Below, in pieces: positions 9,784 to 58,159 of a DNA stretch of 64,000 bases (within the stretch, counting starts at the first letter, position 1; every line of letters starts with the position of its first letter). Source of the stretch: Desulfuromonas sp. (lineage in GTDB: Bacteria > Desulfobacterota > Desulfuromonadia > Desulfuromonadales > BM501); assembly GCF_002868845.1 (NCBI RefSeq), contig NZ_PKUB01000002.1:1037-65036 (forward strand), in the 5' to 3' direction. The translations under genes and the position numbers were made by a program. The notes beneath the pieces were generated by a model. The model saw only the letters and a program-made list of their open reading frames with translations, was not told where the DNA came from and searched no databases.

Positions 9784-10911
9784 ATGACCCCGGAAAGCTG
9801 CCGCCGACTCTTCCCCGTCACCTAACAGTTCGTCTTTCTCAACCATGCCGCCATCGCCCCGCCCTCGACCCCTGCGGCGGAGGCGGCCGCGGCCTTCCAC
9901 TACGGGTGCGCAGCCCGGGGAAGCGCCGATTACTTCGACTGGCAGGAACGGCTGGCCGGGGTGCGCCGCTCTGTCGCGACTCTGCTCGGCGCAGGGGAGG
10001 AGGAGGTCGCCCTGACCGGCAACACCTCCGAGGGCCTCGCCATGGTGGCCGAAGCCTTCCCCTGGCGCCCCGGCGACGCGGTCCTGGTCCCGGTTCCCGA
10101 CTTCCCCGCCAACGTCTATCCCTGGATGCACCTGGAACGCAAAGGGGTAAAGATCCGCTTCGTGCGGCGCCGCCAGGGACGCCTGACGGCGGACGATTTC
10201 GCCCGGGCCCTGGTCCCAGAAGCACGAATGGCGGTGGCCAGCACGGTCGATTTCGCCAGCGGCTACGCAACCGACCTGGAAGCCCTCGGGAGCTTCTGCC
10301 GGGAAAAGGGTCTGATCTTCGGGGTGGACGCTATCCAGAGCCTGGGAGTCCTGGCGCTGGACGTCAAAAAGTGCGGCATCAACTTTCTCGCCGCCGGCGG
10401 CCACAAGTGGCTCCTCGGCCCGATGGGGACGGGGATGCTCTACGTGGACGCGGCCCTCACCCCAGACCTCGACCCGCCCCTGGTGGGATGGAAGAGCGTG
10501 GCCGACGAGGAGAACTTCGAACTCCACTTCGAACTCAAGGAGAACGCTCAGAAATTCGAGCCTGGGACCATGAACCTTGCGGGGATTTTCGGGCTCGGAG
10601 CCTCCCTGGAGCTGCTGCGGGAGGTGGGACCGGAAGCCGTCCGGGATCGGATTTTCGCCCTCTGTGACCGCTTTGCGGAGGGGCTGCTCGGCCGCGGACT
10701 GGAGCTGGCCTCCCCCCTCTCGGCGGGGGAGCGCTCGGGAATCCTCTCCTTCCGGCCGCAGGACGAAGCGGCCGCCACCTTCCGCCACCTGATGGCCAAC
10801 CGGGTCCAGGTCTCCCTGCGGGGCGGCCTGATCCGCCTCGCGCCCCACTTCTACAACAACGAAGACGATGTGGAGGGGTTTTTCCGGGTCCTGGATAAAA
10901 CGCCCCGCTGA
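9784..10911 (+). pseudogene. class-V aminotransferase (cysteine desulfurase-like) interrupted by in-frame TAA at 9823-9825
   Basis: ATG 9784 gives MTPESCRRLFPVT, then TAA. The same frame continues QFVFLNHAAIAPPS...VRRSVATLLGAGEEEVALTGNTSEGL and joins ORF 9961..10911, which carries the PLP-fold block AAGGHKWLLGPMGTGMLYV. There is no alternative start between the stop and 9961. Confidence 0.8.
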
Positions 10912-10969
10912 AGGTGCATCCCGGGATCCGTGCTTGTGCTTTGGTCTGCAGCTCCGCCCCCATCTCCTT

Positions 10970-11028
10970 GGGTCCAGGGGATTGGGCGGGCAATCCCCTG
11001 GTCGCCTGCGGGGGCGAGACCCCGCAAC
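10970..11028 (+). repeat. REP-like dual-hairpin element, copy A
   Basis: GGGTCCAGGGGATTGGGCGGGCAATCCCCTGGTCGCCTGCGGGGGCGAGACCCCGCAAC. It contains a 9-bp hairpin (AGGGGATTG/CAATCCCCT) and a 6-bp hairpin (GCGGGG/CCCCGC). A near-identical copy lies at 49456..49513. Sits between convergent genes. Confidence 0.8.
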
Positions 11029-11116
11029 CCGTTTCGAATTTCAACAGGGGAAAAACTCGCTGCGTTCAGACATTCATCGCTTCTTTTTCAGCAAAGGCCT
11101 TCCAGCTCCGTCACCA

Positions 11117-12109
11117 TCACCCGGGGATTTCGGTCCCCCCGGCCAGAAGGCCGGAATAGAACCGGTACCAGTTCCCCCCCATGATCCCGGCGACCGCCTC
11201 CCGCCCGTAGCCGGCGCCAAGCATCCTTTCGGCCAGCAACCCCAGCCTGCCGTGATCCTCCAGCCCCCGGCAAGCCCCGTCGAATCCCCCCAGGTCGGTC
11301 CCAAGGCCGACCCCGTCGGGTCCGACCTTCTGCACCAGCCAGTCGACCTGGCGGAACAGGTCCTCGATCCCCGCCCGACCGGTGATGGAGAGCATCTCCG
11401 GAGCGAGAGCGAGGCCGACCACCCCGCCCCGATCGAGCACCAGGCGGACCTGCGCCTCGTCCAGGTTCCTCGGCCGATCGCAGAAGGGGCGCAGGCCGGT
11501 GTGGGAGCAGACCAGGGGCCCGCCGAAGATCTCCGCCACCTCCCGAAAGCCGGGGGCGGCCAGGTGGGCGACGTCGATGACCCACCCCCGCCGCTCCAAC
11601 TCGCCCACCAGGCGTCTTCCGGCGGCGCTCAGCCCCCCCGGGGAGACGACCCCGTTGCCGTCGGCGATGCGGTTGCGCCCGGCGTGGGTCAGGCCGACCG
11701 CCGTCACCCCCCAGCTGCGCAGCGCATCGAGGTCGGCCTCGAGCAGGGCGTCGCCGTTCTCGACCAGAAAGAGCACCCCGGTCTGCGACTCTCCCCGGAA
11801 AGACGCCTCGAGCTCTGCCTCCCCATGGATGCGCTGCAGTCCGGACAGTCGTCGTTCGGCGAACCCCTGCAGGGAGCGCAGATGCTCCAGGGCGGTGCCG
11901 GGGCCGTTGTGGGCGTCGGCGCAGTACAGGGCGCAGACGAGCGTCCGGACGTTGCCCTCCGCCAGCGAGGAGGCGGTGACCGGTCCGGCGGCCAGTCCGG
12001 CGAAGGGGGTCTCGTCCCCCCGCTCCATCATGGCGTAGACCAGGTCGACGTGGCCGTCGAAAACCGGAAAGGCCTGCGGCGGCTCAGCGGGTCGCAAGGA
12101 AGTATTCAC
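11117..12109 (-). CDS. membrane dipeptidase (peptidase family M19)
   Basis: 330 aa. FDGHVDL near the N-terminus, GLTHAGRN, VIDVAHL, VCSHTG and LGTDLGG blocks typical of renal-dipeptidase-family enzymes. Confidence 0.8.
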   Translation of the reverse strand: MNTSLRPAEPPQAFPVFDGHVDLVYAMMERGDETPFAGLAAGPVTASSLAEGNVRTLVCALYCADAHNGPGTALEHLRSLQGFAERRLSGLQRIHGEAELEASFRGESQTGVLFLVENGDALLEADLDALRSWGVTAVGLTHAGRNRIADGNGVVSPGGLSAAGRRLVGELERRGWVIDVAHLAAPGFREVAEIFGGPLVCSHTGLRPFCDRPRNLDEAQVRLVLDRGGVVGLALAPEMLSITGRAGIEDLFRQVDWLVQKVGPDGVGLGTDLGGFDGACRGLEDHGRLGLLAERMLGAGYGREAVAGIMGGNWYRFYSGLLAGGTEIPG

Positions 12110-16667: not shown

Positions 16668-16880
16668 GGAATCCTCCTGGTGGAAAAATGGTTCCGGTCC
16701 CCCCCGTGGGGCCTTTGACCGGGAACCGTGAAGATGAGTTCAAGGACCCGCTCTATTGGTCGGCCAAGCTCAGGGGTTTCGGTTTATTAAAGTGTAGCAG
16801 ATCGCAGCCGGGGTGCGACCGCACTGGGCCCGGCTGAAATGAACCGGCGGAAGACGCCGATGGGAAAAAGGTGAGAAGCG

Positions 16881-17141
16881 GTGAAAACTCTCGGTGGGTT
16901 TGTCGGAATTCTCCTGCTGGCCGGATGCTCTCTGCCCCCGCCCAGCTACACCTGGACACGAACCGACGGCGCCCTCCCGGTCGGCCTCTACCTCGACAGG
17001 GAGGACTGCGAGTTCGAGGTCATGGACAACCGACCCGATTGGGGTTTCTTCACCCGGTCGGCCGTTTACGACTGGGATGACGATTTCCAGGCCTGCATGA
17101 CGGGCAAGGGCTGGGTCCTGAAGAGCCGCGAGAGCCCCTGA
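16881..17141 (+). CDS. small lipoprotein
   Basis: 86 aa, GTG start, lipobox ILLLAGC. No family recognised. Confidence 0.5.
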   Translation: MKTLGGFVGILLLAGCSLPPPSYTWTRTDGALPVGLYLDREDCEFEVMDNRPDWGFFTRSAVYDWDDDFQACMTGKGWVLKSRESP

Positions 17142-23584: not shown

Positions 23585-24646
23585 ATGAAACTCATGAAAG
23601 GTATCGACGACAACCGTTCCCGCCTCGCGGTCCTGCAGCGGCGGAACGACGAACTGAAGACCCTCCTGGAGGTGGGCAAGGTCCTCACATCGACCCTCCA
23701 ACTCGATGAGATCCTCCGCACCGTCATGGAAAAGGTGGGAGGCCTCCTTCGGTGCCGGATCTGGTCCCTGCTCCTGGTTGACGAAGCGAGCGGCGAACTC
23801 ACCTTCGAGATCGCGGTTTCCCCGGCCGCATAACAACTCCGGGCGATTCGGCTCCACCCGGGCGAGGGCATCGCCGGGTGGGTTGCGAAGCACGGGGAGC
23901 CGGTGCTGGTCAACGACGTGCAGAAGGATCCCCGCTTCGCCCGCGAGGTGGACCGGGCGGTCTCCTTTTCCACTCACTCAGTCGTCTGCGTCCCGATCAA
24001 GAGCAAGGAAAGAAGTCTCGGGGTCATCCAGCTCATCAACCCCCTCGGAGAGGGGGAATTCGGAAAGGCCGACCTCTCCATCCTTTCCTCGATCGCCGAT
24101 TTCGTAGCCATCGCCATCGAAAACGCCCGCAACTTCGAAAAGATCAGCGACCTGGCAGTCACAGACGACCTGACGGGGCTGTTCAACGCCCGCCACTTCC
24201 ACTCTCTTCTCGAATACGAGATCGAGCGAAGCGCCCGCGTGGGTAGCGACCTGTCGCTGGTCTTTTTCGACCTTGACCATTTCAAGACCGTCAACGACAC
24301 CTACGGTCACCGGTCCGGCAGCAAGCTGCTCGCCGAGATCGGAGACCTGCTCAAAGGATCCATCCGCAGGGTCGACCGGGCTGCCCGCTACGGCGGCGAC
24401 GAATTCGTCCTCATCCTCCCTGCCACCCCCAAGCAGGGGGCCTTCGAAGTGGCCACCAAGCTGCGTCGCAAGATCCGGACCCTCGAGTTCCTCACCGAAG
24501 ACGGCAGCCCCGTCGAAGTGACGGCCAGCTTCGGAATCGCCTCCTTCCCCGAAGACGCCGGAGGCAAGGAAGACCTCATCCGGCTCGCCGACCAGGCCAT
24601 GTACGAGGCCAAGCAATCCAGCCGGGACACGGTCAGAGGCCTCTGA
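23585..24646 (+). pseudogene. GAF-GGDEF diguanylate cyclase interrupted by in-frame TAA at 23831-23833
   Basis: ORF 23585..23833 (start of the GAF domain) and ORF 23903..24646 are in the same frame. Reading through the TAA gives ...EIAVSPAA*QLRAIRLHPGEGIAGWVAKHGEPVLVNDV..., a continuous GAF domain. The GGDEF domain follows (RYGGDEFVLIL). Confidence 0.85.
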
Positions 24647-24653: not shown

Positions 24654-25412
24654 CTACAGTTCGTAAACCGCTCCATCCTCCGCCAGTTCCATCTGAGGAA
24701 TGCCCAGGGCGCGGACTTCCGCGGCGATGGCCTCGCGAAAGAGCGGCTTGAGGTGGGTTGCGAGGATGCGGGGCGGCAGGGTTTCCATCTTGTTCAGTTA
24801 CTCGACCAGCAGGCGCGGGGTCAGGTGGCCGGTCAGGCGCGCCACGTCCTCCATGTCGTTGGGAAAGGACACCTCGGCCAAGAGCAGGGACAGGTCCGCC
24901 GCGCCCTTCCATATTTCTTCGGAGGGACCGGTGTCGCCGGTATAGAGGATGGACTTGCCCCCCTTGCGTACCAGGTAGCCCTGCGCCGGAACGACGTGGT
25001 TCACGGGGTAGGCCGTCACCTCGAAGGAATCGAGGTGCACCGTCTGGCCCTCGCACAACTCCCGGTAGGCGATGGCCGGATTGCCGATCAGGCCGAGCGT
25101 GGAAAAATCGGGCCAGATCACGTTGTTCATCAGGTGGGTCTGGACCGCCTGCAGGCAGTCGGCACTGCCGTGGACCTCAAGGGTCTTGGGCCAGCGACAC
25201 AGGTTCAGGTTGTCCGCGAGAAAAGGCAGGGCCCGGGTATGATCGAGATGGGCGTGGGTGAGCAGGACGTGGTTGATGTCGCATTGCTCATGCTCATCGA
25301 GGACCGCCCCGACCGTGCCCGCATCGAGCAGCAACGAACCATCGAGAAGGAATGCCGGCGGCCGGCTGTATGGAAGCTCTGCCCCGCCGCACCCCAAAAC
25401 ACGCAATTGCAT
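24654..25412 (-). pseudogene. MBL-fold class-II-like cyclic-nucleotide phosphodiesterase interrupted by in-frame TAA at 24798-24800
   Basis: ATG 25412 follows GGGAGGGA. The metallo-beta-lactamase motif is THAHLDH. The ORF stops at ...HLTPRLLVE*. The same frame then continues LNKMETLPPRILATHLKPLFREAIAAEVRALGIPQMELAEDGAVYEL to TAG at 24654, which is the expected C-terminus of this family. Confidence 0.75.
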
Positions 25413-33931: not shown

Positions 33932-33955
33932 GCTTCAGGTGGAGAGCCCGAGTGC

Positions 33956-36146: not shown

Positions 36147-36236
36147 GAAAATTCACACCCATCCCCGCAACCGCTTCGTTCTAAAGAGTGGTACGGAAGG
36201 TGACCTTTTTCCACAGGAGGAGAGAGGAAAGGCACC

Positions 36237-36957: not shown

Positions 36958-37081
36958 CGGGCGGCGCCACGACCGAGAGCACGAAAGGGAGACCTCCCAA
37001 GCCCCTCCCTTGCCCTTTCAGAAACAGCTGGGAATTCAGGAGGCCCTCGCCAAGAAAGGGCCTCCGCCCCTCCGTGAATAC

Positions 37082-37116
37082 AGAAAGGCGGACCGTGCGG
37101 GTCCGCCTTTCTTTTT
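37082..37116. terminator. bidirectional intrinsic terminator
   Basis: AGAAAGGCGGAC-loop-GTCCGCCTTTCTTTTT between the convergent dodecin and hemerythrin genes. Confidence 0.75.
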
Positions 37117-37149
37117 CAGCAGGTCTTCCTATCGAGGGGAAGTCTCCGG

Positions 37150-37587: not shown

Positions 37588-37714
37588 GGCGGCTCCTCCT
37601 TTACTTGAGAATTCGATCTTCATTATAAGCACGTTCCGAGCCCGGGGGCAAATCGGCCGATGTCGGGTATACTTATTAAAACCCCTCTGCCCCCTCCGCC
37701 ACCGGGATCACGCC

Positions 37715-38509: not shown

Positions 38510-38643
38510 GCGGCGGCTGCCCACCCTCTGTGCAGCAGATGCCACCCGGATGTGCAGATTTTGGGCAGACCGGACCATCGGCCCCAGCGCCCCACTCTCC
38601 GAAAAAGGCGCAAGCCCGGGCAAATATGCATGCCTCAATATAT

Positions 38644-38659
38644 TGGCACGCTCTCTGCT
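38644..38659 (+). promoter_or_regulatory. sigma-54 (-24/-12) type promoter upstream of nifH
   Basis: TGGCAC-GCTCT-CTGCT, with GG and GC at canonical spacing. About 300 nt upstream of the nifH ATG. An AT-rich tract (AAATATGCATGCCTCAATATAT) lies immediately upstream. Confidence 0.6.
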
Positions 38660-38720
38660 AGATAGAGAGTGACAGACGTCAATGGGCCACGAGGATGTGT
38701 GCCCGCGACAGAGGCGATGA

Positions 38721-38754
38721 AGCCCGACGGGGAGCGATCCCCCTCGGGCTTTTT
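38721..38754 (+). terminator. intrinsic terminator 1 in the nifH leader
   Basis: AGCCCGA(C)GGGG-AGCGAT-CCCC(C)TCGGGCT followed by TTTTT. 11 bp plus one mismatch. Confidence 0.7.
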
Positions 38755-38803
38755 GTATCTACAGCAGATGGGCGGCGCCACGGCGGAGCCGCCCGGGCAA
38801 TGG

Positions 38804-39837
<1,034 letters not shown>

Positions 39838-40012
39838 GGCACCGGGCGATTTGCCCCCAGCTCGGCGTTGCCCTGCGGGATCGCAGGTTCGACGTAGCTT
39901 CCGCTACGCCTCGCCAGCTCTCCCTTGTGCGCCTTGATCTGAGGGCAACTTGCCCGTCGCTGTGGCGGCGCTATCGAAGAGATCTAAGAATCAGGCATTA
40001 AAGGAGTTCAAT

Positions 40013-41455
40013 ATGGCCGAAAGAAAGCCCATCGCGGGCGTGACCAAAGAAAAAACCGAGAAGCTGATCGAGGAGACCCTCGCGGCGATGCCGGAGAAGG
40101 CCCATAAGAAACGCGCCCCCCACCTGGGCGCCAACGAGCCGAGCGCCTCGCCCTGCGCGGTCAAGTCGAACAAAAAGGTCGTCCCCGGGGTCATGAGCCA
40201 GCGCGGCTGCGCATACGCCGGCGCCAAGGGGGTGGTCTGGGGCCCGATCCGCGACATGATCCACGTCTCCCACGGCCCCATCGGCTGCGGCGTCTACAGC
40301 TGGGGGACCCGGCGCAACCTGATGCAGGGGACCCCTGGCGTCACCTCCTTCCCCATGGACTTCACCTCAGATTTCCAGGAGCGCGACATCGTCTACGGCG
40401 GCGACCAGAAGCTGGAGAAACTGCTGGGCGAGGCGGACGAGCTCTTCCCCCTGAACAAGGGGATGTCGATCCTTTCCGAGTGCCCGGTCGGACTCATCGG
40501 CGACGACATCAACGCTGTCGCCAAGAAGATGGAAGGCGAACTCGACAAGCTGGTCGTGCCCTGCAACTGCGAGGGTTTCCGCGGCGTCTCCCAGTCGCTG
40601 GGGCACCACATCTCCAACGACTCGATCCGCGACCACATCATCGGCAAGTACGAGTTCCCGGACGAAGCCGGCCCCTACGACGTCGCGCTGATCGGCGACT
40701 ACAACATCGGCGGCGACGTTTGGGCCGCCAAGCCGATCCTCGAAGAGATCGGCCTCAACGTCAAGAGCGTCTGGACCGGCGACGGCGAGGTGGAGAAGAT
40801 CGCCGCCACCCACACCGTCAAACTCAACCTGATCCACTGCTACCGCTCCATGAACTACATGTGCAAGGTCATGGAAGAGAAGTACGACATTCCCTGGCTC
40901 GAGTACAACTTCTTCGGCCCGACCAAGATCGAGGAGAGCCTGCGCGCCATCGGCGAACTGTTCGACGACACCATCAAGGCGAACGTCGAGAAGGTGATCG
41001 CCAAGTACAAGCCGATCATGGAGGCGGTGATCGACCAGTACAAACCGCGCCTCGACGGCAAGACCGCCATGCTCTTCGTCGGCGGCCTGCGCCCCCGGCA
41101 CACCATCGGCGCCTACGAGGACCTCGGCATCCAGATCACTGGCGCCGGCTACGAGTTCGCCCACCAGGACGACTACGACCGGACCGCGCCGGAAATGGCC
41201 AAAGGGACCTTGATCTACGACGACGTCTCCGAATTTGAGCTCGAGAAGTTCGTCGAAGAACTCAAGCCCGACCTGGTCGGGTCCGGCATCAAGGAGAAGT
41301 ACGTCTTCCAGAAGGCCGGCATCCCCTTCCGCCAGATGCACAGCTGGGACTACTCGGGTCCCTATCACGGTTACGAAGGGTTCAAGATCTTCGCCCGCGA
41401 CATCGACATGGCGATCAACAGCCCCACCTGGAAACTGGTGAAGGCGCCGTATTAA
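40013..41455 (+). CDS. nifD: nitrogenase molybdenum-iron protein alpha chain
   Basis: 480 aa after [48 protein letters not shown], and CYRSMNYM (FeMo-co Cys ligand region). Confidence 0.95.
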
Positions 41456-41460
41456 AAGCA

Positions 41461-41532
41461 GTAACAAGTGACGGGTAACGAGTGACGGAAAGCACCTAAA
41501 GCTTGCTCTGCTTTGCTTGTCACCCATCACCG
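41461..41532 (+). repeat. heptamer array in the nifD-nifK spacer
   Basis: GTAACAA GTGACGG GTAACGA GTGACGG (41461-41488). Inverted partial units TTGTCAC CCATCAC follow at 41517-41530. Confidence 0.7.
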
Positions 41533-41552
41533 ACCTTAAAGGAGTTATCGCC

Positions 41553-43013
41553 ATGAGCGAATGCGCATTGAAAAAAGTGACCGAGCACTCCCCCGAAGAG
41601 GTGGAGAAGGTCAAGGAATGGATAAACACTGAAGAATACAAGGAAAAGAACTTCGCCAGGACCGCCCTGGTGATCAACCCGGCCCACGCCTGCCAGCCTC
41701 TCGGGGCGCAGATGGTGGCCACCGCCTTCGAGGGGAGCCTCCCCTTCGTCCACGGCTCCCAGGGGTGCGCGTCCTACTTCCGCAGCACCTTCAGCCGCCA
41801 CTACCGCGAGCCCGCTGCGGCCACCTGCGACGCCATGACCGAGGACGGCGCCGTCTTCGGCGGCCAGAACAACCTCTTCGAGGGCCTGGAGAACGCCTAC
41901 GCCCTCTACAAGCCGAAGATGATGCCGGTCTACACCACCTGCATGCCCGAGGTCATCGGCGACGACCTGACCGCCTTCATCACCAACGCCAAGCAGAAGG
42001 GTCATATTCCGGAGGACCTGCCGACCCCCTACGCCAACACCCCGAGCTTCAACGGCACCCACATCCACGGTTACGACGCGATGATGCGCTCCGTCCTGCA
42101 GTACCTCACCAAGGATCAGAAGGTCGAAGGCAAGTGCACCGGCAAGCTCAACCTGATCCCCGGTTTTGACGGCAACACCGGCAACATCCGCGAGTACAAG
42201 CGCATCCTCGAGGCCATGGAGATCCCCTACACGGTGATGGCTGACACCTCCGAGGTCTTCGACACCCCCTGTGACGGGACCTACCAGCTTTACCCCGGCG
42301 GGACCAAGCTCGAAGACGCCGCCGAGTCGATCAACGGCAAGGCGACCATCTCTCTGCAGAAGTACTCAACTGCCACCACCATGAAGTGGATCGACGCCGA
42401 GTACAGCGGCGAGAAGGCCGTGATGCCCATGCCCTTCGGCATCGCGAAGACCGACGAGTTTCTGATGAAGCTCTCCGAGCTCTTCGGCAAGGAGATCCCC
42501 GCGGAGCTCAAGGCTGAGCGCGGCCGGGCCGTCGACGCCATGACCGACGCCCACCAGTACCTGCACGGCAAGAAGTTCGCCGTGGCCGGTGACCCCGACT
42601 ACCTGATCGGCATCGTCAGCTTCCTGCTCGAAATGGGAGCGATCCCCCACCACGTCCTCTGCTCGCGGGCAACCAAGAAGTTCAAGAAGGAGATGGATGC
42701 GCTGCTGGAAACGTCCCCTTTCGGCGCGGGATGCACCGTCTACATCAACAAGGATCTCTGGCACATGCGCTCCCTGCTGGTGACCGACCCGGTCGACGGA
42801 ATCATCGGCGACACCCACGCCAAGTGGGCCGCCCGCGACGCGGACACCCCCCTGTTCCGCATCGGCTTCCCGATCATCGACCGCGTCAACCTGCACCGTT
42901 CCCCGGTGATCGGCTACCAGGGCGCCATCAACATCCTGACCATGATCGCCAACAAGTTCCTCGACATCAAAGACGAGACTTGCGAAGACCAGTGGTTCGA
43001 GATGATGCGCTAA
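41553..43013 (+). CDS. nifK: nitrogenase molybdenum-iron protein beta chain
   Basis: 486 aa after AAGGAG. NPAHACQPLGA, VHGSQGCASYFRS, TTCMPEVIGDDL. Confidence 0.95.
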   Translation: MSECALKKVTEHSPEEVEKVKEWINTEEYKEKNFARTALVINPAHACQPLGAQMVATAFEGSLPFVHGSQGCASYFRSTFSRHYREPAAATCDAMTEDGAVFGGQNNLFEGLENAYALYKPKMMPVYTTCMPEVIGDDLTAFITNAKQKGHIPEDLPTPYANTPSFNGTHIHGYDAMMRSVLQYLTKDQKVEGKCTGKLNLIPGFDGNTGNIREYKRILEAMEIPYTVMADTSEVFDTPCDGTYQLYPGGTKLEDAAESINGKATISLQKYSTATTMKWIDAEYSGEKAVMPMPFGIAKTDEFLMKLSELFGKEIPAELKAERGRAVDAMTDAHQYLHGKKFAVAGDPDYLIGIVSFLLEMGAIPHHVLCSRATKKFKKEMDALLETSPFGAGCTVYINKDLWHMRSLLVTDPVDGIIGDTHAKWAARDADTPLFRIGFPIIDRVNLHRSPVIGYQGAINILTMIANKFLDIKDETCEDQWFEMMR

Positions 43014-43019
43014 AGGCAG

Positions 43020-43093
43020 TAGCGAGTGACAGGTGACGAGTGACAAGTAAAGAATGCTTTTAACTCGTCACTCGTCACTCGTCACTCGTCACT
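43020..43093 (+). repeat. inverted heptamer arrays after nifK
   Basis: TAGCGAG TGACAGG TGACGAG TGACAAG (43020-43047), a 16-nt spacer, then CTCGTCA x4 (43064-43091). CTCGTCA is the reverse complement of TGACGAG, so the two arms can form a long imperfect hairpin. Confidence 0.8.
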
Positions 43094-43166
43094 TCTCCCC
43101 GAAGGGGAAGACATGATCAGAACAAGACGTTTCGAGATCGTCGGCCCGGAGCTGAAAGGATTGACC

Positions 43167-43553
43167 ATGAAGGTGGCATTTGCCAGCACAGACAAAGTTC
43201 ATGTTGACGAGCACTTCGGCAGGGCCGAGGCGTTCTACATCTATGAAGTCGGGCCGGAAGAGGCCGAATTCACGGGCGTGCTCCAGGTCAAGACCGAAGG
43301 GGACGACGAAGCCGACCGCATCGAAGCACGCTGCGCCGGCCTCGATACCTGCGCACTGGTCTACGTCGCCCAGATCGGCGGGCCTGCTGCCGCGCGCCTG
43401 GTCCAGAAAAAGATCCACCCCATAAAGAGCAAGGAGCAGGAACCGATCACCGACGTGGTGGCCAAGCTGCAGGAGGTCCTTCGGGGCAGCCCGCCGCCCT
43501 GGCTGCGCAAGGCGATGCTCAAGAACGAGCGACCGGGGTTCCTGGACAGATGA
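43167..43553 (+). CDS. nifX: nitrogen fixation protein NifX
   Basis: MKVAFASTDKVHVDEHFGRAEAFYIYEV..., IGGPAAARLVQKKIHPIK, and a C-terminal LRGSPPPWLRKAM. The alternative upstream ATG 43113 cannot be excluded. Confidence 0.8.
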   Translation: MKVAFASTDKVHVDEHFGRAEAFYIYEVGPEEAEFTGVLQVKTEGDDEADRIEARCAGLDTCALVYVAQIGGPAAARLVQKKIHPIKSKEQEPITDVVAKLQEVLRGSPPPWLRKAMLKNERPGFLDR

Positions 43554-43643
43554 CAATGTAGGGGCGATCCTTGTGATCGCCCGGAACGCGGAGGGCGAAT
43601 AGGAGATTCGCCCCTACACGCCACAATCATAAGGAGAAGTACC

Positions 43644-43913
43644 ATGGCTTACCTGACCGGCAAGACCAAGGGCGGCGCCGACTGGACCCCCACCTTCGTC
43701 GAGGCGATCGACCACGAAAAGTGCATCGGCTGCGGCCGCTGCTACAAAGCCTGCTCCCGCAAAGTGCTGGGGCCCTTCGATCTGGAGGACGAGGAGTCCG
43801 AATCGATCCGCATGGTCATGGAGATCGTCAAGAACGATGCCTGCATCGGCTGCGCCGGCTGCGGGGTGACCTGCAGCAAGAAGGCCTTCTCCTTCAAGCC
43901 GATGGAAGTCTAA
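43644..43913 (+). CDS. nif-specific ferredoxin III (2x[4Fe-4S])
   Basis: 89 aa. WTPTFVEAIDHEKCIGCGRCYKAC...RMVMEIVKNDACIGCAGCGVTC. RBS AAGGAGAAG. Confidence 0.85.
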   Translation: MAYLTGKTKGGADWTPTFVEAIDHEKCIGCGRCYKACSRKVLGPFDLEDEESESIRMVMEIVKNDACIGCAGCGVTCSKKAFSFKPMEV

Positions 43914-43965
43914 GAAAGCTGCAAGCTGTCAGTTTGCTGCTATCAGCTTTTAGTCTCAAAACCTT

Positions 43966-44073
43966 GACAACTGACAACTGACAACTGACAACTGACAACT
44001 GACAACTGACAACTGACAACTGACAACTGACAACTGACAACTGACAACTGACAACTGATAGCTGATAGCTGAC
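43966..44073 (+). repeat. perfect tandem heptamer array: GACAACT x13 then GATAGCT x2
   Basis: I counted unit starts at 43966, 43973, ... 44050 (13 identical copies), then 44057 and 44064 (GATAGCT). The array ends 15 nt before ATG 44089. Inverted single units (TGTCAGTT, GCTATCAGC) lie at 43927-43949. Confidence 0.95.
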
Positions 44074-44088
44074 CGAAGGGAGTTCACC

Positions 44089-44472
44089 ATGCTCATCGCC
44101 GTCGCATCGAAAAACGGCACCGAGGTCGACCAGCACTTCGGCCATGCCTAGCGGTTCCTGATCTACGACTTCAAAAAGGGCAACCCCAGGCAGGTCAAGG
44201 AAGTGCAGGTGGAGAAATACTGTTCCTTCGACCCCGACCACCCCTTCCGCCACGAACAGTTCAACGCCATCGTTGCGGCCCTGGACGGCTGCAGAGCGGT
44301 GGTCACCGCCCAGATCGGCGAGTTGCCGAAGCAGGAACTTCAGAAAGCCGGCATGGTCGCGGTCAATGCCTCCGGGCCGATCATCCCGGCTCTGCAGGCG
44401 GCCCATGACGCGGCATGCGGATGCGGCTGCAAAAAGCCGTCCCCCGACGGCCCCTGCCCTCACTCGGCCTGA
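44089..44472 (+). pseudogene. NifX/NifB-C-terminal-like FeMo-cofactor-binding domain protein interrupted by in-frame TAG at 44149-44151
   Basis: RBS GAAGGGAG, then ATG 44089. MLIAVASKNGTEVDQHFGHA, then TAG. The same frame continues RFLIYDFKKGNP... and joins ORF 44203..44472. HFGHAxxFxIY is the family hallmark. Confidence 0.75.
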
Positions 44473-44703
44473 TTCAATAAGAATCCGCCCTCGAACGACT
44501 TTGGAGACTTTCCCCTTTCAGCTCCTGCCGAAAAAAGGGACTTTCCAGAGATGCAATTGCCTTTGGCATGGGCAGGGAGGATCAGAGGGGTCCTTCCTGC
44601 CTCCTTTTTTTCGGGCGACTGTATTCGCCCACTGCCGCCTCGGCGCCCGAAAAGGCCCGTCTTGACGGGGATTGACGGAATGGGCCGGCCCCATCGGCCC
44701 ACT

Positions 44704-44719
44704 TGGCACGACTGATGCT
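44704..44719 (+). promoter_or_regulatory. sigma-54 (-24/-12) type promoter upstream of nifB
   Basis: TGGCAC-GACTG-ATGCT with canonical GG/GC spacing. About 195 nt upstream of the nifB ATG. Confidence 0.55.
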
Positions 44720-44746
44720 ATAAGAAGGACAGAGACAATCGATATT

Positions 44747-44789
44747 GCGATACAAGGCCGTATCGCCCCCTGAAGACGGCAAAGAAGCC
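44747..44789 (+). promoter_or_regulatory. candidate ANTAR-type dual hexaloop hairpin
   Basis: P1 is GCGATAC[AAGGCC]GTATCGC, a 7-bp stem. P2 is GGC[AAAGAA]GCC, a 3-bp stem. Both loops have A at position 1 and G at position 4. The 3' arm of P2 is the first 3 nt of the terminator stem. Confidence 0.45.
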
Positions 44790-44817
44790 CCCCGGAGATC
44801 TCTCCGCGGGGCTTTTT
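44787..44817 (+). terminator. intrinsic terminator in the nifB leader
   Basis: GCCCCCCGGAGA-TC-TCTCCGCGGGGC (11 of 12 bp paired) followed by TTTTT. Confidence 0.7.
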
Positions 44818-44912
44818 CTATCCAGTCACACGAGCATCGGCGCTCACCCCACAGCGGGTCAGCGCCGGTTTGCGTTTCGACCGCTTTATGCGGCCGCGAA
44901 AGGAGAAAAGCC

Positions 44913-45782
44913 ATGGCCACCGGATGCCCGATGATGAAAGCCAAGAGACAGACCGACCACCCCTGCTTCGGCGGGGACCACGCCAATACCGGCCGCATCC
45001 ACCTGCCGGTGGCGCCGGGCTGCAATATCAAGTGCGGCTTCTGCGAGCGCAAGTTCGACTGCGCCAACGAGAGCCGCCCCGGGGTGACCAGCCAGATCCT
45101 TTCCCCCGAGCAGGCCCTGGAGCGGGTGCGACTGGTCAGCCGCCACCCCAAGGTCGGCGGCAAGTTGAAAGTCGTCGGCATCGCAGGTCCCGGCGACCCC
45201 CTGGCCAACCCGAAGACCTTCGAGACGTTCGAACTGGTCAGGGAGGCCTTTCCGCAGATGCACCTCTGCCTCTCCACCAACGGCCTGCTCCTCACCGAGC
45301 ACCTCGACCGCCTGCTGAGCCTCGGCGTCCACAGCGTCACCGTGACCGTCAACGCCCTGACCCCCGAGACCGGGGCGAAGGTCTACGAGTGGGTCCGCCA
45401 CGGCGATGTGCGGCTCGAGGGCGAAGCGGGCGCGGCCCTGCTGCTCAAGCGGCAGTTCGAGGGAATCCGCTATGCGGCGGCCGCCGGCATGATGGTCAAG
45501 GTCAACTCGGTCTACATCCCCGGCGTCAACGACCACGAGACCCTCGACCTGGCCGTCAAGGTCCGCGACCTCGGCGCCGACGTCATGAACATCATCCCGA
45601 TGATCCCGCTCGGAATCTTCAAGGGACTCGAACCCCCGAGCGATGTCGTCATGGAGATGGTGCGCAACAAGGCCGAGCTGATCCTCGCCCAGGCGCGCCA
45701 CTGCAAGCAGTGCCGGGCCGATGCCGCCGGGCTGGTCGGCCAGGACCTCGACCTGGAAGAACTGCACGCCCAGGCCAGCTGA
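44913..45782 (+). CDS. nifB: FeMo-cofactor biosynthesis radical SAM protein NifB (short form, no C-terminal NifX-like domain)
   Basis: 289 aa after AAAGGAGAA. HPCFGGDHANTGRIHLPVAPGCNIKCGFC (CxxxCxxC), GIAGPGDPLAN, LSTNGLLL, TVTVNA, CKQCRADA. Confidence 0.9.
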   Translation: MATGCPMMKAKRQTDHPCFGGDHANTGRIHLPVAPGCNIKCGFCERKFDCANESRPGVTSQILSPEQALERVRLVSRHPKVGGKLKVVGIAGPGDPLANPKTFETFELVREAFPQMHLCLSTNGLLLTEHLDRLLSLGVHSVTVTVNALTPETGAKVYEWVRHGDVRLEGEAGAALLLKRQFEGIRYAAAAGMMVKVNSVYIPGVNDHETLDLAVKVRDLGADVMNIIPMIPLGIFKGLEPPSDVVMEMVRNKAELILAQARHCKQCRADAAGLVGQDLDLEELHAQAS

Positions 45783-45787
45783 TACGT

Positions 45788-45824
45788 GCATCCCGGTGGC
45801 CTAACGGTCGCCGGGATGCTTTTT
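45788..45824 (+). terminator. intrinsic terminator after nifB
   Basis: GCATCCCGG, a 14-nt loop, CCGGGATGC, then TTTTT. Confidence 0.7.
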
Positions 45825-45830
45825 GCGCAG

Positions 45831-45853
45831 CGTTATTCGCAACGGACATAACG
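45831..45853 (+). promoter_or_regulatory. candidate ModE operator
   Basis: Inverted repeat CGTTAT-N11-ATAACG, 16 nt upstream of the modE ATG. It resembles the CGnTAT...ATAnCG half-sites of ModE boxes as I recall them. Confidence 0.4.
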
Positions 45854-45868
45854 ACGGAAGGGCGACAG

Positions 45869-46672
45869 ATGAATCCGACCGAAAACGGAGAAGTCCCGAT
45901 CGGCCCGGAATGGGACGGTCTGCAGTTGCAGGGCAATGCGGACATGGAGCTGCTCGATGCCATCTGCTCCTGCGGATCGATCAACCGGGCGGCGAAAATG
46001 CTGGGGCTGAGCTACAGGGCGGCCTGGGAGAGGATCGACCGGTTGAACAACCTGTCCCGGAAGCCGCTGCTCGAGCGCAGCACCGGCGGCCGGGGCGGTG
46101 GCGGCACACAGCTGACCCGGGCCGGGAAGGAGTTTCTCGAGCGCTACCGGCTGCTGCATCGCGAGTATCAACGCATGCTGTCGCACCTCGAAGGCGGTGC
46201 CGCCCGGGGCCAGAAGAACCTGGCGCTGATGAAGAGGCTGAACATGCAGTTCAGTGCGAGAAATGCCTGGTGTGGAGAGATCCTGGAGATTTCCCAGGGG
46301 CAGGTCAACGCGCAGGTGGCGATATCCCTGCAGGGCCCGGCCGTGCTGAGCGCAATGGTCACCCGGCAGAGCCTGAACAGCCTCGCACTTGCGCCCGGCC
46401 GCGAGGTTCTGGCCCTGGCCAAGGCCTCGTCGGTCATCATTGGCCTCGATTTGCGTCCCGAGCAGGTGGGAGCCCAAAACCTGCTGACCGGGCAGGTGCG
46501 GCGGATCGTTGCGGGACCGGCGCAGGCCGACGTGACCCTTGAGCTGCCGGGGGGGAGCACGGCCAGCGGCGTGGTCAGCCTGGAAGGGTTGGAGTGCCTG
46601 GGACTCGCCGAGGGGGACGAGGCCTGTGCGCTGATCAAGGCCACGGATATTCTGCTGGCGACGGTGCAATGA
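45869..46672 (+). CDS. modE: molybdate-responsive transcriptional regulator ModE
   Basis: 267 aa. wHTH N-terminus (GSINRAAKMLGLSYRAAWERIDRLN...GGRGGGGTQLT.AG) plus two TOBE/Mop-like repeats (SARN...G.V). Confidence 0.85.
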   Translation: MNPTENGEVPIGPEWDGLQLQGNADMELLDAICSCGSINRAAKMLGLSYRAAWERIDRLNNLSRKPLLERSTGGRGGGGTQLTRAGKEFLERYRLLHREYQRMLSHLEGGAARGQKNLALMKRLNMQFSARNAWCGEILEISQGQVNAQVAISLQGPAVLSAMVTRQSLNSLALAPGREVLALAKASSVIIGLDLRPEQVGAQNLLTGQVRRIVAGPAQADVTLELPGGSTASGVVSLEGLECLGLAEGDEACALIKATDILLATVQ

Positions 46673-47727
46673 TGAGACTCGACATCGACCTGGAAAAGAG
46701 ATTGGGGCACTTCGCCTTTAGCGCCCGCTTTGCCGTGGAGGGCCGGCGGATCGGGATCTTCGGCCCCTCGGGCAGCGGCAAATCGACCCTCGGCAACCTT
46801 CTGGCCGGGTTGCTCAGCCCCGACGCCGGAACCATTCTGCTCGATGGCCGCGACCTCTTCAGCAGTGAGCGGCGGGTCAACCTGGCTCCGGAGCGTCGCC
46901 GGGTGGCGGTGGTGTTCCAGCATGCCCACCTCTTTCCCCATCTGAACGTGCGCCGGAATCTGCTCTACGGTTTCCGGCGCACCCCGGCCGACCGGCGCAA
47001 GCTGACGCTCGAGGATGTCGCCACGGCCCTCGACATCAGCCACCTGCTCGGGCGCGGGGTGGGTGAACTGTCGGGCGGAGAAAAGCAGCGGGTGGCCCTG
47101 GGGCGGGCGCTGCTGGCCAGCCCCGACCTGCTGATTCTCGATGAGCCCTTGAGCGCCCTCGACAGGGGCCTGAAGGAACAGATCATCCCCTTTTTGCGCA
47201 AATCCCTGCGGCGCTTCGCCATCCCCTACCTCTACATCTCCCACTCCCTGAGCGAAATGCGCCTGCTGACCGACCAGGTCCTGCTCTTTGCCGACGGCGA
47301 ACTGCAGGAGATTTCCGATGCCGACACCCTGGCCCGCCAGCGGATGACCAGCAGCAGAGGCGGCTACCTGAACCATCTGACGTTAAGCGACCCGCGGGAG
47401 GTCGGCAGCCTGCTCGGCTACCGCTGGGGAGAAAACGAACTGCTGGTGAGCCACCATGACAATCCGCAGGGGGGGCTGTTCGAGCTTTCCAGCAAAGACG
47501 TGGTGCTGTTCAAAAAGCATCCCCACGCCCTATCGGCCAGGAACCTGCTCACAGGAACGATCACCGAACTGATTCCTATGGGCGGGTCGGTGGGGGCGGT
47601 CCTCTCTTGCGGAGGTGAGCGATTGATCGCCCAGGTGGTGCGCGAAGCCGCCCTCGAACTGGGAATGTCCGTCGGCGGGCAGGTCTATGGAGCGATCAAG
47701 GCGTCGGCCTTTCGCCGCCTGGTGTAA
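46669..47727 (+). CDS. modC: molybdate ABC transporter ATP-binding protein
   Basis: 352 aa. Start overlaps the modE stop. Walker A GPSGSGKST, signature LSGGEKQRV, Walker B LLILDEP, and a C-terminal TOBE domain. Confidence 0.85.
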   Translation: MMRLDIDLEKRLGHFAFSARFAVEGRRIGIFGPSGSGKSTLGNLLAGLLSPDAGTILLDGRDLFSSERRVNLAPERRRVAVVFQHAHLFPHLNVRRNLLYGFRRTPADRRKLTLEDVATALDISHLLGRGVGELSGGEKQRVALGRALLASPDLLILDEPLSALDRGLKEQIIPFLRKSLRRFAIPYLYISHSLSEMRLLTDQVLLFADGELQEISDADTLARQRMTSSRGGYLNHLTLSDPREVGSLLGYRWGENELLVSHHDNPQGGLFELSSKDVVLFKKHPHALSARNLLTGTITELIPMGGSVGAVLSCGGERLIAQVVREAALELGMSVGGQVYGAIKASAFRRLV

Positions 47728-47737
47728 ACAATGAAGG

Positions 47738-48502
47738 ATGAGAACGATGAAAAGACTTGGAATTATCGGCTTCGCCCTGGCCCTGACGTTGCTGCTGCCG
47801 TTTGGCCCGGCGCTGGCTGCCGAGGTCCGAATTTCAGCTGCAGGCAGCCTGACCGATGCGATCAAGGAACTGGTCGAGGGTTATCGGCAGTCCCATCCGG
47901 AGGTCGAACTGCTGCCGAATATTGCCGCCTCCGGAGCCCTGGCCAAGCAGATCATTGTCGGTGCGCCCGCCGATATCTTCATCTCGGCCAACCCGAAATG
48001 GATGGAATACCTCCAGCAAAAGGGTTTGATTGCCGCCGGTTCGGAACAGGTGCTGCTGTTTAACAGCCTTGTCTTGGTCGGCCCGCCGGAGAGCAGCGTC
48101 AGGTCCCTGCAGGACCTGCCCGCACTGCAACGCATCGCGCTGGGGAGTCCCCAATCGGTGCCGGCCGGAAAATATACCGAACAGGCCTTGACGGCAGCAG
48201 GGATTTATCCCCAGTTGCTCGCCGAGAGGAAACTGGTTCTGACCAAGGATGTCCGTCAGGCTCTGCTATACGCAGACCGGGGCGAGGTTGGCGGCGCCTT
48301 CGTCTACCGGACCGATGCGCTGCTGGCGAAACAGGCGAGAATTCTCCTTGCCGTTCCGCAGGAACTCTACCCGCGGATAAACTATCCGGCGGCATTGACC
48401 GAAGCCGGCGCAGACAACCCTGCGGCGCAAGCCTTTTTCCGCTTTCTGTTCAGCGCCGAAGCGCAGCGGATTTTCCGCAACCACGGCTTTCTCACACCTT
48501 AA
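47738..48502 (+). CDS. modA: molybdate ABC transporter periplasmic binding protein
   Basis: 254 aa. Signal peptide, then ISAAGSLTDAI, ASGALAKQI..GAPADIFISAN, VPAGKY, and GFVY-like GAFVYRTDA. ATG 47747 is an alternative start. Confidence 0.85.
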   Translation: MRTMKRLGIIGFALALTLLLPFGPALAAEVRISAAGSLTDAIKELVEGYRQSHPEVELLPNIAASGALAKQIIVGAPADIFISANPKWMEYLQQKGLIAAGSEQVLLFNSLVLVGPPESSVRSLQDLPALQRIALGSPQSVPAGKYTEQALTAAGIYPQLLAERKLVLTKDVRQALLYADRGEVGGAFVYRTDALLAKQARILLAVPQELYPRINYPAALTEAGADNPAAQAFFRFLFSAEAQRIFRNHGFLTP

Positions 48503-48513
48503 GGACGGCGGCG

Positions 48514-49200
48514 ATGTTCACCCTTTCTCCAACCGACATCCAGGCCCTGTGGCTGTCGGCGCAGGTCGCGACGGCGGCGACGCTGGTGGCCCTGCCGGCC
48601 GGGTTCGCCATCGCCTGGCTGCTGGTCTTCAGCCGTTTGCCCTGCAAGGCCCTGGTCGATGGGCTGGTGAATCTGCCGCTGGTGCTGCCGCCGGTGGTCG
48701 TCGGTTACCTGCTGCTGCTCCTCCTGGGGCGGCAGGGCCCGCTGGGGGCACTGCTGAATTCCCTCGGCATCCAGATGATTTTCACCTGGAAGGCCGCTGT
48801 GGTCGCCTGCGCGGTCATCGGCCTGCCGCTGATGGTGCGCTCGATCCGCCTTGGGATGGAGCAGATCGATCCCCACCTGCTCCATGCCTCGCGCACCCTC
48901 GGCGCCGGCTGGTTCGACACCATGCGCTCGGTGGTGCTCCCCCTGACCGTCCCCTCCCTGGTGGCCGGCGCCACCCTCTGCTTCGCCCGCAGCCTCGGGG
49001 AGTTCGGCGCCACGATCATCCTCGCCGGCAACATCCCCGGCGTCACCCAGACCATCCCCCTGGCCATCTACGACTACACCAACACGCCCGGAGGCGAGGC
49101 CGGGGCCCTCTCCCTGTGCCTGGTATCGATCGTCCTGTCCTACGTCGTCCTGCTTTTCAACGAGGCGGCGCTGCGGCGCTTTCGCAAAACGAACGGTTAA
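48514..49200 (+). CDS. modB: molybdate ABC transporter permease
   Basis: 228 aa. Five TM segments and the EAA-type loop (LHASRTLGAGWFDTMRSVVLPL...ARSLGEFGAT). Confidence 0.9.
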   Translation: MFTLSPTDIQALWLSAQVATAATLVALPAGFAIAWLLVFSRLPCKALVDGLVNLPLVLPPVVVGYLLLLLLGRQGPLGALLNSLGIQMIFTWKAAVVACAVIGLPLMVRSIRLGMEQIDPHLLHASRTLGAGWFDTMRSVVLPLTVPSLVAGATLCFARSLGEFGATIILAGNIPGVTQTIPLAIYDYTNTPGGEAGALSLCLVSIVLSYVVLLFNEAALRRFRKTNG

Positions 49201-53453: not shown

Positions 53454-55136
53454 ATGAAGACCGGAGCCCAGATCCTGCTCGAGTGCCTGACGAAGGAGGG
53501 GGTGGACACCATCTTCGGCTACCCCGGCGCCCGCACCCTGCTGGTGCACGACGCCCTGCACGGCAACGAAGACTTCCGCCACGTCCTGGTGCGCCACGAA
53601 CAGGGGGCGGCCCACGCCGCCGACGGCTACGCCCGCACCACGGGCCGGGTCGGGGTGTGCCTGACCACCTCGGGACCGGGGGCGACCAATCTGGTGACCG
53701 GCATCGCCACCGCCTACATGGACTCGGTTCCGATGGTCGCCCTGACCTGCCAGGTGACCACCGCCGACATCGGCAACGACGCCTTCCAGGAGGCGGACAT
53801 GACCGGCATCACCCGGCCGATCACCAAGCACAACTACATCGTCACCGACGTCGACGACCTGGCGCGCATCGTCCGCGAGGCCTTTCACGTCGCCCGCACC
53901 CGCAGGCCCGGGCCGGTGCTTGTCGATCTGCCGAGCGACGTGCTGGCGGCCGCAACCGACAAACCGATTCCCGAGTCGGTCGCGCGGCGCGGCTACCAAG
54001 AGGTGCCGGCCCTCAACAAAAAACAGCTGAAGCGGGCGGCCGGGATCATCAACGGGGCGAAGCGGCCGCTGATCTACGCCGGCGGCGGGGTGGTCATGGC
54101 CGAGGCCGTAGAGGCGCTGCGCTCCGTCGCCGGAAAGGGGAACATCCCGGTGACCCACACCCTGATGGCGATCGGCGCGATGGACCACGCCTCGCCCCTG
54201 TCGATCGGCATGCTCGGCATGTACGGGGCCTTCTACGCCAACATGGCGGTGAGCGAGTGCGACTGCCTGATCGCGGTCGGCGCCCGCTTCGACGACCGGG
54301 TGGCGGGACGGGTGGACGCCTTCGCCCCCAAGGCGCGCATCGTCCACATCGACATCGACCCCTCGAGCATCCGCAAGAACGTGCAGGTCGAGGTGCCGAT
54401 CGTCGGCGACGCCCGCCAGGCCCTGGAGGGACTGCTCGGGCTGGTCGAGGAGCGCGACCGCGGCCCCTGGCTGGAGGAGATCCAGGAGTGGCGAAAGGAG
54501 TTCCCGCTGCCGGCCCCTCAAAGCCCCGACCTGATGCCCCACGAGGTGATCGAAGCGATCAGGAACGTGGCGGGGGAGGCCCCCCTCATCGCCTCGGACG
54601 TGGGCCTGTCGCAGATGTGGACGGCCAACTACTTCGGCTTCTCCGGGGCCCGCCAGTACATCACCAGCGGCGGCCTCGGCACCATGGGTTACGCCCTGCC
54701 GGCGGCCGTCGGGGCCGCCCTCGGCAACCCCGGGCGGCCTGTCATTGCCATCAACGGCGACGGCGCCTTCCAGATGAACGTGCAGGAACTGGCCACCTGC
54801 GCCCATTACGGCCTGCCGGTCAAGACGATCATCCTCAACAACGGCAAGCTCGGCATGGTGCGCCAGTTCCAGAAGGTCTTCCTCAAGGAGCGCTTCGCCG
54901 CCACCTGCCTCGGGCCAGGCGTCGACTTCTGCACCGTGGCCCGGGGCTTCGGCGTCCAGGCCTTCAAGGTGGAACGCAAGGCGGACCTGCAGGGCACCCT
55001 CGCCCGGGCGATGGCCGCGCCGGGGCCGGCGGTCATCGACGTGGACATCGACCCCTACTGCTACTGCTTCCCGATGGTCCCGCCGGGAAAAAAGGCGACC
55101 GAGGCGATCTTCTGCGCCGAGGACTGGGAGGGATAG
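53454..55136 (+). CDS. ilvB: acetolactate synthase large (catalytic) subunit
   Basis: 560 aa after GAAGGAGGGAA. GAQILLECLTKEGVDTIFGYPG, HEQGAAHAADGYAR, TSGPGATNLVTGIATAY, and the ThDP motif GLGTMGYALPAAVGA...NGDGAFQMN. Confidence 0.9.
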   Translation: MKTGAQILLECLTKEGVDTIFGYPGARTLLVHDALHGNEDFRHVLVRHEQGAAHAADGYARTTGRVGVCLTTSGPGATNLVTGIATAYMDSVPMVALTCQVTTADIGNDAFQEADMTGITRPITKHNYIVTDVDDLARIVREAFHVARTRRPGPVLVDLPSDVLAAATDKPIPESVARRGYQEVPALNKKQLKRAAGIINGAKRPLIYAGGGVVMAEAVEALRSVAGKGNIPVTHTLMAIGAMDHASPLSIGMLGMYGAFYANMAVSECDCLIAVGARFDDRVAGRVDAFAPKARIVHIDIDPSSIRKNVQVEVPIVGDARQALEGLLGLVEERDRGPWLEEIQEWRKEFPLPAPQSPDLMPHEVIEAIRNVAGEAPLIASDVGLSQMWTANYFGFSGARQYITSGGLGTMGYALPAAVGAALGNPGRPVIAINGDGAFQMNVQELATCAHYGLPVKTIILNNGKLGMVRQFQKVFLKERFAATCLGPGVDFCTVARGFGVQAFKVERKADLQGTLARAMAAPGPAVIDVDIDPYCYCFPMVPPGKKATEAIFCAEDWEG

Positions 55137-56973: not shown

Positions 56974-57024
56974 AAATCGGCCTCTCGCCCGTTCGCATTC
57001 GCTCTCTCAAGTCGCAAAGAAAAG
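56974..57024 (+). repeat. intergenic repeat family 2, copy B
   Basis: AAATCGGCCTCTCGCCCGTTCGCATTCGCTCTCTCAAGTCGCAAAGAAAAG. Matches 34714..34771. Confidence 0.75.
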
Positions 57025-57164
57025 CATTGAGATCCGATTTATTGCCCTTCTTGACGCCTTTGCGGCTTTACGCGAGACGAGATGTTTGGTTTTTCCGGAT
57101 TCCTCTGTGCCCTCTGCGCCTCTGTGTCAACAACCTCTGCTTCGGCCGCAGGTCCGAAACCTTC

Positions 57165-57419
57165 CTACCCGCCCTGCCCGCCGACGAGGGCCAGCTTGCC
57201 CTGCCGGGGCAGGCGCTTGATCGCCATCTCCCGGCGGGTCGCCTCGCCCCGCGACGTCGCCTGCTCCCGGTAGAGGAGTTCGACCGGAAGGCGGCCCCGG
57301 GTGTACTTGGCGCCGCGCCCTTCGGCGTGGGTCCGCAGCCGCATCTCCAGGTCGTTGGTGATGCCCGTGTAAAGCGTATCGTCGGCGCAGCGCAGAATGT
57401 AGACGTACCAAGGTTTCAT
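57165..57419 (-). CDS. GIY-YIG nuclease-family protein (UPF0213)
   Basis: 84 aa. WYVYILRCADDTLYTGITNDLEMRLRTHAEGRGAKYTRGR. Confidence 0.85.
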   Translation of the reverse strand: MKPWYVYILRCADDTLYTGITNDLEMRLRTHAEGRGAKYTRGRLPVELLYREQATSRGEATRREMAIKRLPRQGKLALVGGQGG

Positions 57420-57433
57420 GATCGAAAGAAACC

Positions 57434-58159
57434 TCAGGAGCGGCCCCTGGCCCTCGCCGGTTTCGCCCTTCCCGTACGGGGCGACGGCATCTTCGCCAGG
57501 TAGACCACGTGGCGCAGCCCCCCCCGTCCGGGCCGCTCGCTCGTCACCGAAAATCCGGCGGCCTTCAGGCGCTTGTCGAAACCGGCGTCGAAATTCTCGC
57601 CCCACACGGCGAAGACCCCGCCGGGGCGGAGGGCGGCCCGGGTTGCCTCGATGGCCCTGCTGCCGTAGAGGGGATCGTCGCGCTTGTGGGAGCCGGCGTG
57701 GGGACCGGTGTAGAGATCGAGGACGACGGCGTCGAAGCCCTCCGCCCCGGCGCCGACGGCGGAACGGCGGATAAGGTCGGCGACGTCGGTGATCTCCACC
57801 GTCACCCGGGGATCGGTCGCGGCGCCCCCGGTGAGCCCCGCCAGGGGGCCCCGGCACCATTCCAGGACGACGGGGTTGAGCTCCGCGACGACGACCTTGG
57901 CGGCAGCGGGCAAGGTATCGAGGACCGCTTTCAGTGTAAAGCCCATGCCGAGGCCGCCGACCAGCACCCGCGGGGCGGGGTGCCCCTTCAGGTGTCTGCA
58001 GGCGAGTTCTCCGAGGACGACCTAGGAGCGGTGGGCCAGGCTGTTCATGAGGACCCGCCCGCCGACGGTGATGAGGAAGTCCCGCTCGCCGCGCTGGCGC
58101 AGCTCGAGGGCGCCTTCGGCCGTGGGGACGTTGTCGATGGTTTTCCAGGGCTGGGCCAT
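57434..58159 (-). pseudogene. spermidine-synthase-like methyltransferase interrupted by in-frame TAG at 58022-58024
   Basis: ORF 58022..58270 reads (from ATG 58159) MAQPWKTIDNVPTAEGALELRQRGERDFLITVGGRVLMNSLAHRS. ORF 57434..57967 is in the same frame. Through the TAG the frame reads VVLGELACRHLKGHPAPRVLVGGLGMGFTL, the SAM-binding motif. Confidence 0.7.

Follow-up and report, generated by a model that had tools for sequence, protein, structure and literature searches.

An excess of G:C>T:A changes has been described in bacteria defective in the repair of 8-oxoguanine (8-oxoG), among them natural Pseudomonas aeruginosa mutY hypermutators (Ruis et al. 2023, PMC10625568) and E. coli MutY lines, in which mutations are mostly C>A (PMC10995721); it has also been described as an 8-oxoG artefact of library preparation (Costello et al. 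2013, PMC3616734). The lesion itself forms preferentially at a G that carries a 3' guanine (PMC6974700). Here we analyze a 64,000-nucleotide stretch of a Desulfuromonas sp. draft genome (RefSeq assembly GCF_002868845.1, contig NZ_PKUB01000002.1, positions 1,037 to 65,036; hereafter the window), in which five conserved genes are each interrupted by one in-frame TAA or TAG codon. Comparison with near-identical relatives leaves hardly any doubt that each of these stops arose from a GAA or GAG codon by a single G>T change, as part of a private burst of substitutions of the oxidation type, and that they are not recoded, conserved or programmed. We lean towards the fuller statement that this burst of about 50 changes arose in vivo, in a lineage with a defect in MutY-type repair. 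The five genes are recent gene breaks or sequence errors, not a new reading of the stop codon.

Our gene map consists of 68 genes, placed by transferring the relatives' gene calls to the window; 66 of them are complete. Exactly five of the 66 (7.6%) are interrupted; there are no internal stops elsewhere and zero frameshifts. This agrees with the original prediction, made from the sequence of the window, that about 8% of the genes carry a single internal stop and no indel. All five stops are present where it had placed them, the same frame is open on both sides of each, and the family-typical motifs that it had listed downstream (LNHAA, GEGIAGWVA, THLKP, FLIYD and GGLGMG) were all located; its aminotransferase start is corrected here to the ATG at 9784. 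In three of the genes a Pfam domain spans the stop. The deposited proteins of the record stand as fragments (79 + 266 aa, and others). Coordinates are collected in the table.

Table. Interrupted genes of the window, followed by other features discussed in the text. Positions are those of the window; residue numbers are those of the uninterrupted proteins.
Feature	Position (strand)	Codons	Stop in the window	Codon in relatives, with coding-strand G	Family assignment and domain spanning the stop	Remarks
Class-V aminotransferase	9784-10911 (+)	375	TAA 9823-9825, codon 14	GAA (Glu) in relatives, G at 9823	Aminotran_5	
GAF-GGDEF diguanylate cyclase	23594-24646 (+)	350	TAA 23831-23833, codon 80	GAA (Glu) in relative, G at 23831	GAF-GGDEF; GAF, residues 37-175	stop within GAF domain
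MBL-fold class-II cyclic-nucleotide phosphodiesterase	24654-25412 (-)	252	TAA 24798-24800, codon 205	GAA (Glu) in relative, G at 24800	Lactamase_B_2/PDEase_II; Lactamase_B_2, residues 44-220	
Second NifX-like gene	44089-44472 (+)	127	TAG 44149-44151, codon 21	GAG (Glu) in relative, G at 44149	Nitro_FeMo-Co, residues 10-104	
Spermidine-synthase-like methyltransferase	57434-58159 (-)	241	TAG 58022-58024, codon 46	GAG (Glu) in relatives, G at 58024	Spermine_synth-like	
draT	7982-8776					unchanged, upstream of draG
draG	8857-9750					D97Y (G>T at 9145, +); G181C (9397)
Nitrogen-fixation region	7410-10911 and 33638-49200					
TGACAAC tandem array	43965-44073					15.6 copies
Dense tracts of differences	33016-33369, 10548-10698, 53999-54023, 28240-28284, 16860-16902					first tract around FKBP gene
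JGI nonsense site in DUF155 gene	38114					JGI L002 743-745, GAG>TAG

Three sources supplied the relatives, contigs of the same Desulfuromonas species that were found by exact-protein look-up and show 99.7–99.9% DNA identity (about 99.8% to the window): ENA ERZ794998 NODE_9 (404,779 bp, cov 254), Logan SRR5894287, and low-coverage contigs of JGI metagenome 3300007102. Together they cover all 64,000 bases of the window. The ENA and Logan contigs are identical over their 26.6 kb overlap and were therefore treated as a single strain. Each of the five interrupted genes is whole in the relatives, at the full lengths given in the table; the methyltransferase gene is uninterrupted in the ENA, Logan and JGI contigs, the 350-aa form of the cyclase is also found in JGI/IMG, and site 9823 is G in ENA, JGI and Logan alike. 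Every stop thus corresponds to a G>T nonsense substitution of a Glu codon, as the original prediction had considered plausible at 24798 and 58022; it was right for both sites and fell short only in that the other three were Glu originally as well. The orthologue alignment that it had proposed gives Glu in the near relatives, and E, D, Q or R at the stop position in distant aminotransferase orthologues (29–47% identity, aligned over N-terminal residues), each of them one continuous gene. Exact-pattern scans around 9823, with N at the variable base, returned zero matches in genome contigs or metagenome contigs. The nearest species representative among genome contigs has 60% identity in the aminotransferase, so no closer outgroup genome is available there.

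The five stops are the nonsense share of a much broader substitution load. Relative to its relatives the window carries 104 private substitutions: 48 G:C>T:A, 26 C>T, 20 T>C, six T>G (the A:T>C:G class), three C>G and one T>A. The G:C>T:A set spans positions 2062-61639 and, with two further sites held in common with the JGI contigs (4977 and 9145), amounts to about 0.78 per kb, a burst of roughly 50 changes or about 1.2 per 1000 G:C pairs. By our own grouping, G:C>T:A makes up some 80% of the isolated private changes, those outside dense tracts, with 12 isolated changes of other classes. Spacing of the G:C>T:A changes is near Poisson (coefficient of variation, CV, 0.87), and the other classes are clumped (CV 1.66). 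On the + strand the 48 divide into 25 G>T and 23 C>A, which interleave randomly along the window (27 runs against 25 expected), with no strand-coordinated runs.

The burst bears the signature of guanine oxidation, the mutated G being nearly always followed by a purine: the base 3' of it is A in 25 cases, G in 21, and C and T in one each, so that 96% of the 48 lie in a YpC (equivalently GpR) context. When the two JGI-shared sites are included, Y[C>A]N accounts for 48 of 50 changes against a background of 56% (P = 3e-10). Among these 50 the leading trinucleotides are TCG (13, 3.4-fold enriched), CCG (10, 1.8-fold enriched) and TCC (7); CCG>CAG, lying below TCG, does not dominate the spectrum. 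The oxidative G-to-T signature that the original prediction had offered within one of three explanations, making no choice between them, thus holds at all five stops, within a G:C>T:A excess that extends over the window.

We compared the effects of the 48 changes with a neutral model in which private changes were reverted to the ancestral sequence and every possible G>T was weighted by the observed next-base preference. Synonymous changes number 17 (14.8 expected under the model), missense 16 (21.1), nonsense 5 (4.6) and intergenic 10 (7.3), and the fit is good (chi-square P = 0.46). The burst is therefore without detectable purifying selection. GAA and GAG codons supply 3.8 of the 4.6 expected nonsense hits, which accounts for the confinement of the five stops to TAA and TAG in place of Glu codons and for the lack of TGA.

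The other 56 differences behave otherwise: they are clustered and purified, with 17 replacements against 33 expected (P = 1.5e-5). Many fall in dense short tracts, mostly of synonymous transitions, one example being the 354 bp around the FKBP gene with 11 differences. These tracts look like small recombination imports that stand apart from the scattered G>T load, and the 56 differences as a whole have the look of real divergence between strains that has passed through selection, with recombination as the probable route of import. What the record shows is accordingly a true sister strain on which a G>T burst, in essence free of selection, is superimposed. Single-base indels relative to the relatives number three (60466, 6371 and 33122), all intergenic. 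The one at 60466 shifts the predicted start of an APH-family kinase: the protein has 357 aa in the window and JGI, and ENA and Logan have a 328-aa form. Consensus error of Nanopore or PacBio sequencing was rejected as a source of the changes, given that there are only these three indels, all intergenic, and that the class of error does not match.

The stops themselves place the burst on the window's branch. Further polarity comes from DraG, which carries D97Y and G181C. R. rubrum DraG retains D97 and G181 alike, and the window alleles are therefore derived; we sought a DraG outgroup in the flanks of L010 and later loci, found none there, and used sequences from PDB in its place. The DraG variant of the window has no record in the gene-position index. 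We also considered a mutT-type T>G burst on the branch of the reference strain, which would make the five stops and Tyr97 of DraG ancestral; it is excluded by the aminotransferase orthologues and by R. rubrum DraG. The D97Y change, which is also present in JGI contig L004, hits the catalytic Asp. The same Asp is replaced by Asn in PDB entry 2WOE relative to wild-type 2WOC, the former being, we presume, the engineered D97N active-site mutant of DraG. As DraG is altered in this way and DraT is unchanged, the lineage may have lost the means to reverse the switch-off of nitrogenase by ADP-ribosylation.

How should the stops be read? That they are tolerated or read through, by a suppressor tRNA or by leaky termination at TAR-C, with five full-length proteins still being made, is very improbable. 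E. coli terminates weakly at stops that are followed by C, and the original prediction had observed a C after four of the five stops; the observation is borne out, against a background of 26% of GAR codons (P = 0.018), in a test that is post hoc and has five sites. If the mutations are real, selection in favour of weak terminators could lie behind this C. The stops are already as many as the unselected expectation, and therefore nothing requires such selection and nothing needs rescue. None of the stops is conserved in any relative, and no suppressor tRNA (CUA or UUA anticodon) lies within the window, whose sole tRNA gene is tRNA-Met. Of the leaky termination or suppression that had been proposed, only the following C is left as a hint. 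Stop reassignment or programmed recoding, such as pyrrolysine at TAG, or a set of naturally separate genes, has the preserved reading frame in its favour and nothing else; we consider it next to impossible. In the relatives each site codes for Glu and lies in an undivided gene, and the Pfam domains run across three of the stops. The affected codons include TAA as well as TAG, and each serves as an ordinary terminator here: the 66 complete genes end in TGA (35), TAG (19) and TAA (12), so that TAA or TAG is the normal end of 31, with TAA closing nifH, nifD and nifK and TAG closing draT. The exclusion of global reassignment by the original prediction, which had pointed to these nif and dra genes, is thereby upheld. 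Conserved recoding and naturally separate genes are refuted by the intact single genes in the relatives together with the sense codons in distant aminotransferase orthologues, and the pieces that might have been separate genes are not so in either group.

The more serious alternative is that the organism's genes are intact and that guanines were oxidized during extraction, storage, sorting or shearing, or that few templates were amplified, leaving G>T miscalls in the consensus. We regard this as a real possibility, though one we would not bet on. The neutral proportions of silent, missense and nonsense changes, with nonsense exactly at expectation, speak in its favour, as does the load of about 8% of genes that the changes would otherwise imply. 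Artefacts of 8-oxoG are documented as C>A/G>T with a CCG>CAG preference (PMC3616734), and CCG is enriched here. None of the changes appears in the high-coverage ENA assembly, and the low-coverage JGI contigs have private G>T changes of their own, including a nonsense change in the DUF155 gene, which is called as two pieces (133 + 128 aa) in JGI and is intact in the window and ENA. On the other side, documented shearing artefacts occur at low allele fraction (PMC3616734), and by our inference they are unlikely to reach the consensus of a 68-kb contig. TCN contexts outweigh CCG, and the strand-coordinated runs that we would expect from single-template amplification are absent; the random alternation of the two strand forms, G>T and C>A, likewise weakens single-template damage (multiple displacement amplification or single-cell) and a single acute burst of damage. 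Finally, two of the window's G>T alleles recur in a JGI assembly that otherwise follows another strain: over 28.6 kb the JGI contigs carry the reference-strain allele at all 22 non-G>T window-private sites, and they share with the window the derived G>T alleles at 4977 and 9145 and the indel allele at 60466. By our own estimate the chance expectation for shared G>T sites is <0.02.

Our preferred origin, in vivo in a MutY-type mutator lineage, draws on the presence of the changes in the consensus of a 68,250-bp contig, on a context like that of natural mutY mutators, on their random interleaving, and on the two derived G>T alleles, DraG D97Y among them, in otherwise reference-like JGI contigs. 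Under this origin a MutY-type defect in 8-oxoG (GO) repair would leave 8-oxoG:A mispairs uncorrected, and the mispairs would give rise to G:C>T:A changes; in a 65% G+C genome such changes would strike the abundant GAR and GAC codons, and genes dispensable under the growth conditions (signalling, nif accessory, draG) would decay to pseudogenes. Whether the burst is biological in this full sense is for us an even call: an uncultured Desulfuromonas lineage without MutY-type 8-oxoG repair, in the midst of genome decay, with about one in 13 genes carrying Glu>stop, the catalytic Asp of DraG lost, and the surviving nonsense alleles possibly biased to a weak termination context with C after the stop. 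Several points weigh against it. Nonsense changes are not depleted, and, if the window is representative, about 8% broken genes is a heavy load for a free-living bacterium; the deficit of missense changes (16 against 21) is not significant. Oxidation of DNA in vitro likewise favours the 5'-G of GG and GA, and neighbouring bases by themselves therefore do not tell a real burst from an artefact. Only two of 27 testable sites are shared with JGI, and this sharing would carry no weight if both assemblies drew on the same reads. The comparison is one of assembled consensus sequences, and mutY and mutM lie outside the window.

The window includes a nitrogen-fixation neighbourhood that comprises an ANTAR response regulator, draT, draG, CowN, nifHDK, two NifX-like genes and modEABC. 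The draTG pair seems unusual for Desulfuromonadales. nifI1/nifI2 are not found between nifH and nifD, and NifB of the region is short (289 aa). Directly upstream of the interrupted NifX-like gene lies a tandem array of the heptamer TGACAAC, which in the ENA relative (L001 15010-15083) has 10.6 copies; copy number thus varies in this nif intergenic region.

These genes of a nitrogen-fixing deltaproteobacterium can be accounted for without stop recoding or suppression: some 50 G>T changes predict 4.6 stops, of which Glu codons supply nearly all. A real burst would be a rare environmental example of a GO-repair hypermutator and would give a natural view of the genes that decay first, namely nif accessory genes, draG and cyclic di-GMP (c-di-GMP) signalling. 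If it is an artefact, a public record is flagged whose substitution errors, at about one per kb, would mislead pseudogene counts, dN/dS and strain analyses.

Among described systems, the 8-oxoG library-preparation artefact (PMC3616734) resembles the burst in its base change and in an oxidation-type neighbour preference that includes CCG>CAG; it differs in being dependent on read orientation and of low allele fraction, as against contig consensus here, and in that TCG and TCC are here as strong as or stronger than CCG. The natural P. aeruginosa mutY hypermutators (PMC10625568) are closer: their leading change is C>A (G>T), it falls in CpCpN and TpCpN contexts, and the changes sit on a single long branch beside a near-identical normal relative. 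The differences are that ours is an uncultured anaerobic Desulfuromonas represented by a draft genome or metagenome-assembled genome and not by a set of isolates, and that it is known by the spectrum of the window, with mutY and mutM beyond it. The burst also resembles mutator lines in being made up mostly of unselected passenger mutations of biased spectrum, in dispensable genes as well. Such lines are known from the E. coli long-term evolution experiment, where most of them reportedly were mutT or mismatch-repair mutators that evolved under defined laboratory conditions. As judged from the window, the pattern works like a GO-repair (MutY) mutator signature, G:C>T:A dominance and the CpCpN/TpCpN context both being present. 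It either adds one more case to a known kind or marks a flaw in the quality of a public record.

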